Assembly: GCA_025357175.1 (NCBI GenBank)
Contig: JANXPS010000049.1
Span: 1 to 34,281 of the forward strand
Reading direction: 5' to 3'
DNA from: Deltaproteobacteria bacterium
GTDB taxonomy: Bacteria; Desulfobacterota; Deferrimicrobia; Deferrimicrobiales; Deferrimicrobiaceae
Length of the DNA: 34,281 bases
This document shows positions 2,820-33,527 of this stretch, piece after piece. Positions within the stretch are counted from its first letter, which is position 1. Every line of letters starts with the position of its first letter. The notes beneath the pieces are model-generated. The model was not told the origin of the DNA. It made no database searches and was given only the letters and a program-made list of their open reading frames with translations. A program made the translations under genes and the position numbers.

Positions 2820-3637
2820 CCGCCCCCGCGCTGGCGGCGCGCGGCGTCTCGTTCCGGTACGGCGGACGCGCGGTGCTGTCGGATGTTTCGTTCGCGCTGC
2901 AGGCGGGCGAAGTCGCCATCGTGCTGGGCCCCAACGGCGCGGGGAAAAGCACGCTCCTGCGCCTGCTCTCCGGGACGCTTCGCCCGGCGTCCGGCGATGT
3001 CGCCCTGTTCGGGCGTCCGCCGGCCGACTATTCCCGCCGCGAGATGGCCCGCAACCTGTCGGTCGTGGGACAGGACCCGCCTGTCGATTTCCCCATGTCG
3101 GTCGAGGAATACGTGGCCCTCGGGCGTTTTCCGCACCTGGGGCTGTTCGGCGGGGCCTCGCCCGGCGACCGGGAAATGGTGGCGCGGGCGCTGGCGTCGG
3201 CCGGGCTGACCGATCTCGCGGAAAGACCGCTGTCGGCGCTCTCGGCCGGCGAGCGGCAGCGGGCCGCCGTCGCGAGGGCGATCGCCCAGGACGCGCGCGT
3301 GATGCTGTTCGACGAGCCGACCGCCTTTCTCGACATCCGCCACCGGGTGTTGTTCCACGAGATCGTCGAGCGGCTTGCGGAGGAGCAGGGCGTCGGCGCG
3401 CTGGTCGCGTCGCACGACCTGTCGCTTTCCGCCGAGTACGGCGATCGGATCGTGCTGCTTGCCGGCGGCCTGGTGATGGCCGACGGGAAGCCGGAAGAAG
3501 TCCTGACGCCGGAAAACGTGTTCGCGGCGTACGGAGTCGAGGTCGCCTGCGACCGCAACCCGGCGACGGGGGCGGTGCGCATCACCCCGGTCCGGCGAAG
3601 GAGGATCGGACGGGAACCGAACCGGGACCCGAAGTAA
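2816..3637 (+). CDS. btuD: Cobalamin ABC transporter ATPase
   Basis: GTGA overlap with the btuC stop; Walker A GPNGAGKST, signature LSAGERQR, Walker B MLFDEPT, H-loop SHD. Confidence 0.9.
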   Translation: MTAPALAARGVSFRYGGRAVLSDVSFALQAGEVAIVLGPNGAGKSTLLRLLSGTLRPASGDVALFGRPPADYSRREMARNLSVVGQDPPVDFPMSVEEYVALGRFPHLGLFGGASPGDREMVARALASAGLTDLAERPLSALSAGERQRAAVARAIAQDARVMLFDEPTAFLDIRHRVLFHEIVERLAEEQGVGALVASHDLSLSAEYGDRIVLLAGGLVMADGKPEEVLTPENVFAAYGVEVACDRNPATGAVRITPVRRRRIGREPNRDPK

Positions 3638-3641
3638 GAAC

Positions 3642-3812
3642 AAGGCAGGTTCCAACGAGGGCGGGAACCGGGGAAGGCCGTGGGATTCGGCCGCTGCCCC
3701 GCAACCGTAAAGGGAACGAAACCCGCAGAAGTGCCACTGGGGAATCTCTCGGGAAGGCGCGGGGAGTAGGCAGTCGTCATGACGCCCGAAGCCGGAAGAT
3801 CCGGACCGCCCC
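3642..3812 (+). promoter_or_regulatory. Cobalamin riboswitch 2 (inside the operon)
   Basis: GGGAAGGCCGTGGGATTCGGCC, GCTGCCCCGCAACCGTAA (3693-3710), GCCACTGG..GGGAAGGC and the box GCCGGAAGATCCGGACC. Lies upstream of btuB. Confidence 0.92.
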
Positions 3813-3846
3813 ATTTCAACCCCCTTTCGAGGGCAAAGGAGGATTC

Positions 3847-30183: not shown

Positions 30184-30275
30184 TGGCGGAGAGGGAGAGA
30201 TTCGAACTCTCGGAACCCTTTTGAGATTCACACGATTTCCAGTCGTGTTCCTTCGGCCAGCTCGGACACCTCTCC
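30184..30275 (-). tRNA. tRNA-Ser(GGA)
   Basis: GGAGAGG..CACGA-CTGGAAA-TCGTG, long variable arm, GTTCGAATC, CCTCTCCGCCA. Confidence 0.96.
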
Positions 30276-30342
30276 GCTTGAAAAACCGTCTGATCAAAGA
30301 TCAAGTCTTGATGAATGCCACCTTCCCCTTGCAGGGAAAAAG

Positions 30343-30435
<93 letters not shown>

Positions 30436-30466
30436 GCATTTCGGGGGTCCGTCAGGAAAGACTACC

Positions 30467-30554
30467 TGGCGGAGGGAGCAGGATTTGAACCTGCGGAGCA
30501 TCGCTGCTCAACGGTTTTCAAGACCGCCGCCATCAGCCGCTCGGCCATCCCTCC
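30467..30554 (-). tRNA. tRNA-Ser(TGA)
   Basis: GCGGT-CTTGAAA-ACCGT anticodon arm, long variable arm, encoded CCA. Confidence 0.95.
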
Positions 30555-30631
30555 CCGAACCTTCTATTTATACCCGAATTTCCCGCCGATTGGGACAAAA
30601 AAATGATAACACCGGGAATCCAATCCGGGGT

Positions 30632-31187
30632 GCGGCCCATGGCTCCCCTTCGATGCCCATTCCCTGGACGGCCATAAACTCTCCGTCTAGCGCCACGCGG
30701 GGGCCTCTTCCCGGGGGACGTCTTGTTCGGGCATCCCTGCCCTCTCTGCGACTCCATACCCCTCGCGCCGCCAATCCATGGCGGCTACACCCGCTCGGGG
30801 CATAGGCCCCCGTCCAGAGACCCCCGCTTTGGCGTACGCCGGAGAGCGTGAGGCCTCAATATTATTCTCCAAACCGGGTCGTCGCCGATCTTAACTTCGG
30901 GGCTCATCTCGGCGCGTAGCGGATTCGGGTGTCTCCTGGAAGGGGGCCTGTGCCCCGAGCGGAATTAAGCGCCAGGGATGGCGCTGCGAGGGGTATGGAG
31001 ACGCAGGCGGCCCATGGAAGGGCCGGCAAGGCGTCCCCCGGAAGGAGATACCCGATCCGCCTGAGCGATGAGCACTTGCCCCGCCCACCTCTCTCGCAAC
31101 CGAAACTTGCGTGTATGGGAAGGGCGCCCCCGCGTGGCGCTCGACGGAGAGTCATGGGCCATACTCTAGAGGGGATGTCCGGGCCGC
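30632..31187. repeat. Long imperfect inverted repeat built from structured modules
   Basis: 30678-30704 matches the reverse complement of 31126-31152 at 26/27; 30752-30766 matches that of 30986-31000 at 15/15; 30791-30811 matches that of 30942-30962 at 20/21. Confidence 0.9.
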
Positions 31188-31222
31188 GGCCGAGCCGACG
31201 AGTGCTCGCCCCGCCCACCTCT
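31063..31222 (+). repeat. Direct repeat, two copies 130 bp apart
   Basis: GCCCCGCCCACCTCT at 31078-31092 and 31208-31222, each preceded by GAGC(C)GAYGAGYRCTY. Confidence 0.85.
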
Positions 31223-31305
31223 TTAGTAATCCCAACTACCCGCGTACGGTAAGGGTGTCTGGCCGGAGAGCATCGGGCCGACTCAGGTTTTCGGGGCGGG
31301 CTCCG

Positions 31306-31334
31306 TTGCCGCGGGCGTCATCTTCCAATATGAT
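31306..31334 (+). promoter_or_regulatory. Putative sigma70 promoter of the LPS operon
   Basis: TTGCCG, a 17-nt spacer, then TATGAT. Confidence 0.6.
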
Positions 31335-31368
31335 GGGGGGCTACACCAACTGTCGAAGGGGAATTCCG

Positions 31369-32469
31369 ATGGCGATACCGTTCATGGACCTCAAGGGCCA
31401 GTTCTCGGCGTACGAATCCGACATCCGCGCGCAGGTCGACGACGTGCTGAAAAGCGGCGCGTTCATCATGGGCCCCAAGGGCGCTGCGCTGGAAAAGGCG
31501 CTTGGCGGATTCGTCGGCGCCCGCCACGCGTTCGGATGCTCCTCGGGCACCGATGCGCTGCTGCTCGCGCTCATGGCGTACGGGGTGAAGCCGGGAGACG
31601 AGATCGTCACGACGCCGTTCACCTTCATCGCCACCGCCGAGGTGATCGCGCTGCTCGGCGCCGTTCCCGTATTCGTCGACATAGAACCGGTCCACTACAA
31701 CATCGACCCGTCGAAGATCGATGCGGCGATCACCCCGAAGACGCGCGGCATCATCGCGGTCTCGCTCTACGGGCAGTGCGCCGACATGGAGGCGATCCAG
31801 GCCGTCGCCGAAAAAAGGAACATCTTCCTGATCGAAGACGGATGCCAGTCGTTCGGCGCGGCGCGCAACGGAAAACGGTCGTGCGGATTCGCCCACGTCG
31901 GGACGACCTCGTTCTTCCCGTCCAAGCCGCTCGGCTGCTACGGCGACGGCGGGATGGTGTTCACGTCCGACGACAAGATCGCCGACCTGATCGCCGGGCT
32001 TCGAAACCACGGGCAGTGGGAGCGGTACCGCCACCGGGTGATCGGCATCAACGGCCGGCTCGACGACCTGCAGGCGGCGGTGCTCCTGGCCAAGTTCGCA
32101 CGGTTCGAGGAGGAGCTTGCGGCCCGGGCGCGGATCGGCGCGCGCTATTCCGAAGCGCTGGGCGACGTCGTGACCGTGCCCGCGATCATGCCGGGCAACA
32201 CGCACGTCTTCGCGCAGTACTCGATCCGGACCGCTTCGCGCGACGCGCTGGCGAAGGCGCTGGGCGACAACGGCGTGCCGACGGCGGTCCACTATCCCAT
32301 CCCGCTGCACATGCAGGAAGCGTTCTCGGGGCTGGGACTCGGGGCGGGCGCGTTCCCGGTTTCCGAGTCGGTTTCCACGGAGATTCTCTCGCTTCCGATG
32401 TCCGCGTTCCTGTCGCAGGCGGACCAGGACGAGGTGATCCGCCAGCTCCGTCGATTCTTCGGAAAGTGA
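31369..32469 (+). CDS. DegT/DnrJ/EryC1/StrS PLP-dependent sugar aminotransferase (WbpE/GnnB-like)
   Basis: SGTDAL, PFTFIATAE, SFFPSKPLGCYGDGG, GINGRLD, VHYPIPLH. Confidence 0.92.
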   Translation: MAIPFMDLKGQFSAYESDIRAQVDDVLKSGAFIMGPKGAALEKALGGFVGARHAFGCSSGTDALLLALMAYGVKPGDEIVTTPFTFIATAEVIALLGAVPVFVDIEPVHYNIDPSKIDAAITPKTRGIIAVSLYGQCADMEAIQAVAEKRNIFLIEDGCQSFGAARNGKRSCGFAHVGTTSFFPSKPLGCYGDGGMVFTSDDKIADLIAGLRNHGQWERYRHRVIGINGRLDDLQAAVLLAKFARFEEELAARARIGARYSEALGDVVTVPAIMPGNTHVFAQYSIRTASRDALAKALGDNGVPTAVHYPIPLHMQEAFSGLGLGAGAFPVSESVSTEILSLPMSAFLSQADQDEVIRQLRRFFGK

Positions 32470-33527
32470 CGGCGTCCGCGCCCACGAAAGAGATCCTGGT
32501 CCGCGCGGTCAACTGGCTGGGCGACGCGGTGATGACGACCCCGGCGCTCGCGGCGCTGCGCGAGGCCAGTCCCGGGGCCCGCATCACGCTGGTGGCCAAG
32601 CCGCTCGTCGCCGACCTTTTCAAGGGGCACCCCGATATCGACGAGGTGATGGTCTACGACCGCGACGGGGTGCATCGCGGTTTTTCCGGGAAGCTTCGCA
32701 TGGCGTCGGCGCTCCGGGCCCGGCGATTCGCATCCGCAATCCTGTTTCAGAACGCTTTCGACGCCGCGCTGCTCGCCTTCCTGGCCGGCATTCCCGAACG
32801 GGCGGGTTATTCGACGGACGGCCGCGGGCTGCTGCTGACGCGGCCCGTGTCCGTCACGGCCGAAACGATGGCACTGCACGAGACGGAATATTACCTCTCG
32901 CTGCTCTCGGCGCTCGGCGTCCCGCGTCCGGCGACGCCGGCGCTCAGATTGCACGTCTCGGAGGTGGAACGCGCCGGGATGGCCGCGCTGCTTGCCTCTC
33001 TGGGGATCGAACCGGGCCGGCCGCTCCTCGGGATCAACCCGGGCGCGACGTTCGGCTCGGCCAAGCGCTGGTTCCCCGAGCGGTTCGCCGCGGTCGCCGA
33101 TGCCCTGTCCGACGCCTGGGGTGCGGAGGTCGTCCTGCTCGGCTCCCGCAAGGAGGCGCCCCTTTCCGACGCGATCGAGGCCGCCATGAATAAGAGGCCG
33201 CTCAACCTGACGGGGAGAACGACCGTGCGCGAAATGATGGCGCTGCTCGAGCGGTGCGCGTTCCTCGTGACGAACGACTCCGGCCCGATGCACATCGCGG
33301 CGGCGCTCGGCACGCCGCTGACGGCGATCTTCGGCCCGACCGAATGGGATCGCACCTCGCCGCTGACGAAACGCGCACGGCTCGTGCGCGCCGACGACAT
33401 CGCCTGCGCCCCGTGCAAGCGGCGCGAGTGCGACCGGGAGCACATCTGCATGCTGGGCGTGACGGCCGAAATGGTGATCGAGGCCTCCCTCGGCCTCTCT
33501 CGCGAGGTGGCCGGTGGCCGCGTCTAG
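32466..33527 (+). CDS. waaF: LPS heptosyltransferase II (GT9)
   Basis: ILVRAVNWLGDAVM, INPGATFGSAKRW, TNDSGPMHIAAA. GTGA overlap. Confidence 0.92.
   Translation: MTASAPTKEILVRAVNWLGDAVMTTPALAALREASPGARITLVAKPLVADLFKGHPDIDEVMVYDRDGVHRGFSGKLRMASALRARRFASAILFQNAFDAALLAFLAGIPERAGYSTDGRGLLLTRPVSVTAETMALHETEYYLSLLSALGVPRPATPALRLHVSEVERAGMAALLASLGIEPGRPLLGINPGATFGSAKRWFPERFAAVADALSDAWGAEVVLLGSRKEAPLSDAIEAAMNKRPLNLTGRTTVREMMALLERCAFLVTNDSGPMHIAAALGTPLTAIFGPTEWDRTSPLTKRARLVRADDIACAPCKRRECDREHICMLGVTAEMVIEASLGLSREVAGGRV

Follow-up and report, generated by a model that had tools for sequence, protein, structure and literature searches.

A dispersed family of structured repeats with paired hairpin loops matching the CsrA-binding site in an uncultured deltaproteobacterial family

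We analyzed a stretch of 34,281 nucleotides, hereafter the window, that covers contig JANXPS010000049.1 of the assembly GCA_025357175.1 (Deltaproteobacteria bacterium; GTDB family Deferrimicrobiaceae). The genome comprises 2.52 Mb in 321 contigs and is 96.8% complete. Positions 30632-31280 of the window are occupied by a block of mosaic, repeat-derived modules, which lies next to a cluster of tRNA-Ser genes on one side and, on the other, to a plus-strand gene for a DegT-type aminotransferase located 3' of the right copy (Table 1). The block contains two cores of approximately 150 nt in opposite orientation, and a repeat comparison within the window identified them as the arms of one larger imperfect inverted repeat. 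Its matching segments are 30698-30773 against 30979-31054 (76 nt, 72% complementary), 30774-30817 against 30936-30979 (44 nt, 82% complementary) and 30678-30704 against 31126-31152 (27 nt, 96% complementary).

Table 1. Features of the repeat block and its surroundings in the window (positions are those of the whole stretch)
Feature	Position	Strand	Evidence or remark
Three tRNA-Ser genes, downstream of the left copy	30184..30554	-	
Third hairpin and, after it, remnant of a second 3' module (GGGGAGCCATGGGCC)	30632..30668	-	
Third hairpin, GUCC-AGGGAAU-GGGC	30654-30668	-	hairpin scan
Left copy, full element, subtype A	30670..30857	-	R1 150 bits; aligned with 8 further subtype-A copies; ends pair together
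Left copy, 3' module (GCGTGGCGCTAG..GGCC)	30670-30712	-	
Left copy, core	30691-30837	-	
Left copy, arm-2 hairpin GGGC-AGGGAU-GCCC	30729..30742	-	hairpin scan; A-N-GGA here in 91/91 distinct copies
Left copy, arm-1 hairpin GCCGCC-AUGGAUU-GGCGGC	30767..30785	-	hairpin scan; stem covaries among copies
Left copy, closing helix, 5' strand	30838-30857	-	
A+T-rich spacer between both 5' ends (AATATTATTCTCCAAACCG)	30858..30876		
Right copy including outer "shell" helix	30877..31073	+	R1 129.6 bits
Right copy, shell helix	30877-30886 (GGTCGTCGCC) paired with 31064-31072	+	
Right copy, core	30914-31061	+	apex of the shell helix
Right copy, arm-1 hairpin AGCGCC-AGGGAU-GGCGCU	30968..30985	+	hairpin scan
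Right copy, arm-2 hairpin CGGCCC-AUGGAA-GGGCCG	31008..31025	+	hairpin scan
Third module, two tandem copies	31066-31160 and 31196-31280	+	direct repeats D1, D3
Common 3' module ending each third-module copy	31126-31160 and ~31259-31280	+	

The initial annotation of this region, made from its letters, had described five hairpins, an enclosing helix with opposed GA/GA dinucleotides, and a core shared by two dispersed elements of an undescribed family. An independent hairpin scan recovered all five hairpins at the positions given for them, and the enclosing helix is present in both copies (in the right copy, 30947-30960 paired with 30985-30999). Two long overlapping ORFs also run on the plus strand in different frames, at 31111-32469 and 31536-33527. 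The first encodes a DegT/DnrJ aminotransferase, the second contains a family-9 glycosyltransferase domain in residues 388-636 only, and the true starts of both probably lie further downstream than in the ORF list. A protein-coding reading of long ORFs across the block was rejected in view of the covarying stems and of indels between copies.

To describe the repeat at the scale of the genome, we used sequence and covariance models. A single-sequence nhmmer search located 23 places, and a covariance model (R1) built from 20 own-genome cores of 147 nt gave 25 matches, to which both window copies belong; the view of them as dispersed elements with a common core was thereby borne out. A regular-expression census of the short modules was too noisy to be used. 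Besides intermediates, the copies include subtypes that differ in their closing helix. In subtype A this helix forms between the element's own, mutually inverted ends, and in subtype B it is GGTCGTCGCC/GGCGACGACC; a shared 3' module ends both alike. At six loci the copies form head-to-head pairs, with the minus-strand copy preceding the plus-strand copy and the core 5' ends approximately 100-580 nt apart, and several copies are located at contig ends. Neighboring genes encode a photolyase, a sodium:solute symporter, nitrogenase-like oxidoreductases, an H+-pyrophosphatase, permeases, cytochromes, GcvH and glutamate dehydrogenase. Because these neighbors are unrelated in function and the orientation of the copies relative to them is mixed, a pathway-specific leader is disfavored.

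The family also proved to be undescribed in Rfam. No family was assigned to the element when the whole window was searched at gathering scores, and a search of 30500-31600 at E <= 10 returned only noise (Trans44 and PhotoRC-I, with 14.2 and 12.3 bits against cut-offs of 108 and 45, respectively). Four other subtypes searched at E <= 0.1 likewise gave no match.

RNAalifold predicted that the core folds as a rod opening into two arms. Arm 1 consists of opposed G-A dinucleotides and a hairpin. Arm 2 begins with the 3-bp helix G-N-C/G-N'-C, which has A and G at its flanks, and runs into a terminal hairpin. Compensatory changes, that is, two-sided changes that keep the pair, occur in 22 of the 36 predicted pairs. 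Paired cells amounted to 95.7%, against 84.1% in shuffled alignments, and the covariation score of 0.322 (0.126 in shuffles) was reached by none of 500 shuffles; when the partner was slid by 1-3 columns as a control, only 41-52% of cells were paired. The same fold recurred in a second, divergent subtype found in other genera, where 22 of 33 pairs show compensatory changes. The strand carrying GGA was predicted to be more stable than its complement in all 90 copies compared (mean, -90.0 versus -78.4 kcal/mol), a difference partly explained by the G-rich base composition, and the excess of G-U over A-C cells outside the loop-closing column (46 versus 22) is a weak signal for the same strand. Substitutions between orthologous copies, with one doubtful pair at the C41 locus excluded, were too few to decide: four kept the pair through changes on both sides, five produced a wobble, seven broke a pair and 40 fell at unpaired positions.

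Against this changing background of stems, the loops are nearly constant. In an alignment of 91 distinct copies from at least five genomes, arm 2 presents A-N-GGA in all 91, with N taking all four bases, and arm 1 presents CA-N-GGA in 87. The claim that the loops are kept while the stems covary thus stands, with A-N-GGA constant across at least five genera. Each arm tip is a short G+C stem carrying a C-A-N-GGA-N-G loop; 260 of 312 loops are hexaloops, and the two loop sites are separated by a median of 40 nt. According to passages of PMC7652899, the SELEX consensus for CsrA is RUACARGGAUGU with mostly six-base loops, RsmE complexes contain an ANGGAN hexaloop, and one CsrA dimer bridges two sites that are 10-63 nt apart. 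Both loops of the repeat match this published CsrA/RsmE site and are putative binding sites, and their spacing of approximately 40 nt falls within the range that a single dimer is reported to bridge. The stems are a further point of comparison: 89 of 312 have 6-8 G+C-rich pairs, and most SELEX hairpins have stems of four pairs or fewer, with a hint in the same source that very stable stems may weaken CsrA binding (PMC7652899). Genome-wide, ANGGA hairpins are not enriched (485, compared with 269-925 for six control words), and only 45 of the 485 fall in cores.

CsrA is a global post-transcriptional regulator. The Pfam models of CsrA and FliW had no match in this assembly (96.8% complete, 321 contigs); csrA is present in both other species of the genus. 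In the congener G002 the gene order is a flgL-like gene, csrA, fliW, an unassigned ORF, flagellin and flaG. The CsrA of this congener, a protein of 76 aa encoded at L163:5805-6035 on the minus strand, can be aligned over its full length with CsrA and RsmE chains of solved structure. The flanks of the csrA region in both congeners match our contig C31 up to bases 1-6 and contig C258, which carries a flgL-like gene, up to its last base, 7796. Because the csrA-fliW-flagellin region of the congeners falls exactly between these two contig ends, the missing csrA is probably an assembly gap. The absence of csrA from the lineage, named at the outset as grounds for refutation, does not apply: both congeners have the gene, in the stretch between the ends of C31 and C258. 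The lineage thus has the canonical csrA-fliW-flagellin set. The assembly itself breaks inside flagellin-type genes at the C31 and C258 ends. In the flagellin leader of G002 (L163:4155-4215, minus strand), a GGGC-AAGGAU-GCCC hairpin precedes AAGGAGGA, after which comes the start codon. Judged by its sequence, this leader has the two-site CsrA layout described for the hag and glgC leaders (PMC7652899), and it adjoins csrA-fliW.

We then examined how the repeat is distributed relative to csrA. Among 41 relatives, R1 matches were confined to the same family. Across 70 genomes of that family, R1 matched 15 and CsrA 16: both were found in 11 genomes, R1 only in four, CsrA only in five, and neither in 50. 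With laxer filters, three of the five CsrA-only genomes matched R1 at E < 0.01, and five csrA-less controls gave E values of 0.15-0.5 or no match. The weak control match in G052 turned out to be a real copy, so a second covariance model (R2) was built from 12 divergent copies, and it matched 61 of the 70 genomes. The R2 matches comprise two forms with a near-identical rod, one with two ANGGA loops and one that is GGA-less. In the latter, arm 1 carries loops such as GAGAU or AAAU and arm 2 reads GGUC-GAA-GGUC. This form occurs at loci L187-L216 and L247-L276 of family genomes without csrA, with up to 43 motif matches per genome.

In a census of sampled copies, a hairpin was counted when ANGGA plus 0-2 loop bases was flanked by at least three pairs; CGTATGGAGCG, a word of the rod that would have been scored as a 3-bp hairpin, was excluded. 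In 10 genomes with csrA, 91 of 99 sampled copies had two or more such hairpins, seven had one and one had none. The 22 copies of this genome gave 20, two and zero, respectively. In 15 genomes with neither csrA nor flagellin, only 10 of 83 sampled copies had two or more hairpins, three had one and 70 had none. Because sampling drew on the top hits of models that had themselves been built from GGA-type copies, it favors such copies everywhere, and the contrast is therefore conservative.

A strong GGA-type match, defined as a best E value <= 1e-15 with R1 or R2, was present in 15 of the 16 csrA genomes (five of which hold 40-62 copies each) versus eight of the 54 without a csrA hit. These eight are this genome, G018 (which has flagellin), G076 (57% complete), G052, G056, G060, G069 and G006. 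The reverse held for the GGA-less arm-2 motif, with up to two mismatches allowed: of the 54 genomes that gave no csrA hit, 41 have it, versus two of the 16 with csrA (three copies in all); this genome has no copy of it, the reversed control pattern had no match anywhere, and nhmmer with a GGA-less profile found nothing in this genome. The split of loop forms by csrA also holds within genus g2 and within genus g11. Loop form thus follows csrA across the 70 family genomes, which are related and not independent. The exceptions are G006, G052, G056, G060, G065 and G069, which have neither a csrA nor a flagellin hit and keep 1-3 sampled GGA-type copies; three of these assemblies (G052, G006 and G069) are 91-97% complete. 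On the other side, the csrA genome G021 lacks a strong match. Flagellin has the distribution of csrA, with the addition of this genome and G018, and because the two co-distribute, the phyletic pattern does not separate CsrA from other genes lost with the flagellum. The csrA association may also reflect only a few evolutionary events.

In G021, which belongs to genus g10, we observed a tandem array at L176:1482-1606. It consists of 2.5 copies of a 51-nt unit with 100% identity, and each unit carries the hairpins GGCC-AUGGAU-GGCC and GCCC-AUGGAU-GGGC, which gives at least five GGA hairpins in 125 nt. The array is built like a classical sponge of the CsrB/RsmZ type; it is cut by a contig end, and an assembly effect is possible.

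Outside the family set, a species-wide pattern scan returned 46 stretches, 21 of which came from one record set already covered. The other 25 were run through the model, and 12 of them matched. The 13 unmatched stretches, from Nocardioides, Streptomyces, Gemmatimonadota and others, were taken as chance occurrences. Real members outside the family set were found only in records named "MAG: Deltaproteobacteria bacterium" and in one "uncultured bacterium" record, and the core pattern had no match in viral contigs.

Comparison of orthologous sites indicated that the repeat is movable. The site that spans approximately 700 nt here (30602-31304) is only about 59 nt long in the congener G002. In the congener G001 it is about 235 nt long and includes the third module together with a coreless shell; a coreless shell also occurs in this genome at another site, on contig C115. 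Since the shell of G001 has no core, the core occupies exactly the apex of a hairpin that existed beforehand, and since the block is absent from the same site in two congeners, it was gained or lost recently. At eight other loci, a copy is found at the matching site in a congener. Six G000/G001 pairs have cores of 86-100% identity and one G000/G002 pair has cores of 88% identity, with flanks at 82-99%; the eighth pairing, at the C41 locus, shows 58% identity and may not represent the same insertion. At locus C88, the three species of the genus retain different members of an old pair. Copies in other genera and genomes have unrelated flanks. No target-site duplication is readable at the orthologous site in the G001/G002 comparison because the flanks have diverged too far. 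A search for the Y1 transposase (Pfam PF01797), the only transposase family searched, gave no match in the three genomes of the genus; we take PF01797 to be the family of the IS200/IS605 TnpA and of the REP-associated RAYTs. Taken together, the copies constitute a new, folded, dispersed and movable repeat family.

In our judgment the repeat is probably a mobile structured element that displays a putative two-site clamp for a CsrA dimer. The strongest alternative is a purely selfish or structural DNA repeat, similar to a MITE or a REP/BIME mosaic. Its hairpins would then be relevant at the level of DNA, in single-stranded or cruciform state, for instance as transposase sites; the GGA loops would be unrelated to CsrA, and their association with csrA would stem from the common ancestry of flagellated lineages. 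Such a repeat would fit the presence and absence of copies at orthologous sites, the nested mosaic build (core at the shell apex, common end modules, head-to-head pairs), the many copies at contig ends and the occurrence of at least two subtypes per genome. It would also fit the heterogeneous neighbor genes, the lack of a detected promoter of its own (see below), and the GGA-less scaffold that thrives in 41 genomes without csrA. We nevertheless consider it unlikely, for several reasons. All three genomes of the genus lack PF01797, and an autonomous parent did not come to light. In both arms the loop word is the exact CsrA consensus, with variation at the position where CsrA tolerates it. Within single genera the loop forms split by csrA while the rods stay near-identical, and cores at orthologous loci are conserved at the levels given above, next to flanks matching at 82-99%.

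A second alternative, in line with a suggestion of the initial annotation, is that the copies are stand-alone genes for trans-acting sRNAs of the CsrB/RsmZ type, each with its own promoter and terminator and serving solely to titrate CsrA. Three features would suit such genes: the many GGA hairpins, the A+T-rich stretch that separates the 5' ends of the two window copies, and the tandem array of G021. The proposed transcription start points near 30850 and 30900, by contrast, found no backing: a consensus promoter scan detected no sigma-70-like site between the window copies, the spacer at 30858-30876 included, nor upstream of them, and no shared promoter was visible by eye upstream of the other copies, whose upstream flanks are unrelated. 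The scan located a promoter-like site at 31306-31334 and one terminator-like site, where 1.6 were expected. A search for sequencing runs containing the stretch turned up none of RNA, and the four runs compared with it were DNA contigs, which carry no information on expression. Known sponge genes keep conserved positions between species, whereas the positions of the repeat vary, and each unit offers two sites only. In addition, fliW-type lineages are described as anti-correlated with BarA-UvrY, the driver of Csr sRNAs (PMC7652899). We therefore regard stand-alone sponge genes as distinctly improbable.

Parts of the structure are conserved beyond what CsrA binding needs, namely the rod, the GA/GA internal loops, the three-way junction and the A-G-N-C-G/A-G-N'-C-G junction helix. 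Since genomes lacking csrA also retain the rod, the internal loops and the junction, the scaffold must have a reason to exist other than CsrA binding alone. This over-conservation could point to a structured RNA with a different partner (a protein reading tandem G-A motifs being one candidate) or to a ligand-sensing or processing element, with the GGA loops making loop-loop or loop-receptor contacts, but neighbors without a common function, tens of copies per genome in mixed orientation, the lack of an Rfam match and the failure to explain why the loops alone change with csrA make it the least credible reading, to which we assign very little weight.

Returning to the element with a putative CsrA clamp, a possible mode of action can be outlined. 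A copy would be transcribed on the GGA strand mostly by read-through from neighboring genes and not from a promoter of its own. Because many copies are head-to-head pairs, transcription from either side would present one GGA-sense copy. A transcript with such a copy would bind one CsrA dimer across both arms. Individual copies might thereby influence in cis the RNA of which they are part, and all copies together might hold a share of the cell's CsrA. A broader scenario, which we put forward tentatively and with less than even confidence, is that a mobile RNA element spreads two-site CsrA clamps in flagellated members of this uncultured deltaproteobacterial family, where it may place neighboring transcripts under CsrA control and buffer free CsrA; when csrA is lost with the flagellum, the loops may be replaced and the bare scaffold may continue.

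The repeat can be compared with three known systems. It resembles the sponge sRNAs CsrB, CsrC, RsmX, RsmY and RsmZ of Gammaproteobacteria in presenting GGA in the loops of short hairpins that have the form of the CsrA/RsmE site, and with about 50 sites in this genome (25 copies with two sites each) its total is similar to or larger than that of CsrB. Unlike these sponges, which are one or a few genes with many sites, it consists of tens of dispersed, movable units of approximately 150 nt with two sites each. It also differs in having a conserved rod and three-way junction, in the lack of a promoter or terminator detected by the consensus scan and of a match to an Rfam model, and in a host with fliW-type CsrA control.

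The CsrA sites in mRNA leaders such as glgC and hag/flagellin share with the repeat a high-affinity hairpin site within bridging distance of a second site, as described in PMC7652899, and the congener's flagellin leader shows the same hairpin form as the repeat. In the repeat, however, the two putative sites are both hairpins within one autonomous fold, they overlap no Shine-Dalgarno sequence, and the next start codon lies approximately 50 to more than 300 nt away.

MITEs and REP/BIME/REPIN elements are in general small, non-coding, intergenic, multi-copy and palindromic, with frequent inverted pairs, a mosaic of modules and presence or absence between close relatives, and the repeat has all of these features. 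It differs from them in that no target-site duplication was readable and neither a parent transposon nor, within the genus, a Y1 transposase was seen. Its stems covary around invariant loops that match the site of an RNA-binding protein, and its loop form changes with the csrA of the host. Full-text searches of the literature found no report linking CsrA sites to dispersed repeats, MITEs or REP elements.

The passages of PMC7652899 used here describe RNA antagonists of CsrA for Gammaproteobacteria and a protein antagonist for fliW-type lineages. If the scenario of spreading clamps is right, the repeat would be the first RNA-based partner of a fliW-type Csr system. Confirmation would reveal an RNA layer of Csr control in fliW-type lineages and a case in which a repeat rewires the regulon of an RNA-binding protein. 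The two natural forms, which share the rod and differ in whether they carry GGA loops, provide a built-in control pair.

Two smaller observations concern the window itself. In a related strain, two DNA runs join 31144 to 31264, which leaves a single copy of the third module instead of two. Far upstream of the block, the plus strand carries two cobalamin riboswitch aptamers, at 494-755 (74.4 bits) and 3630-3823 (68.3 bits).
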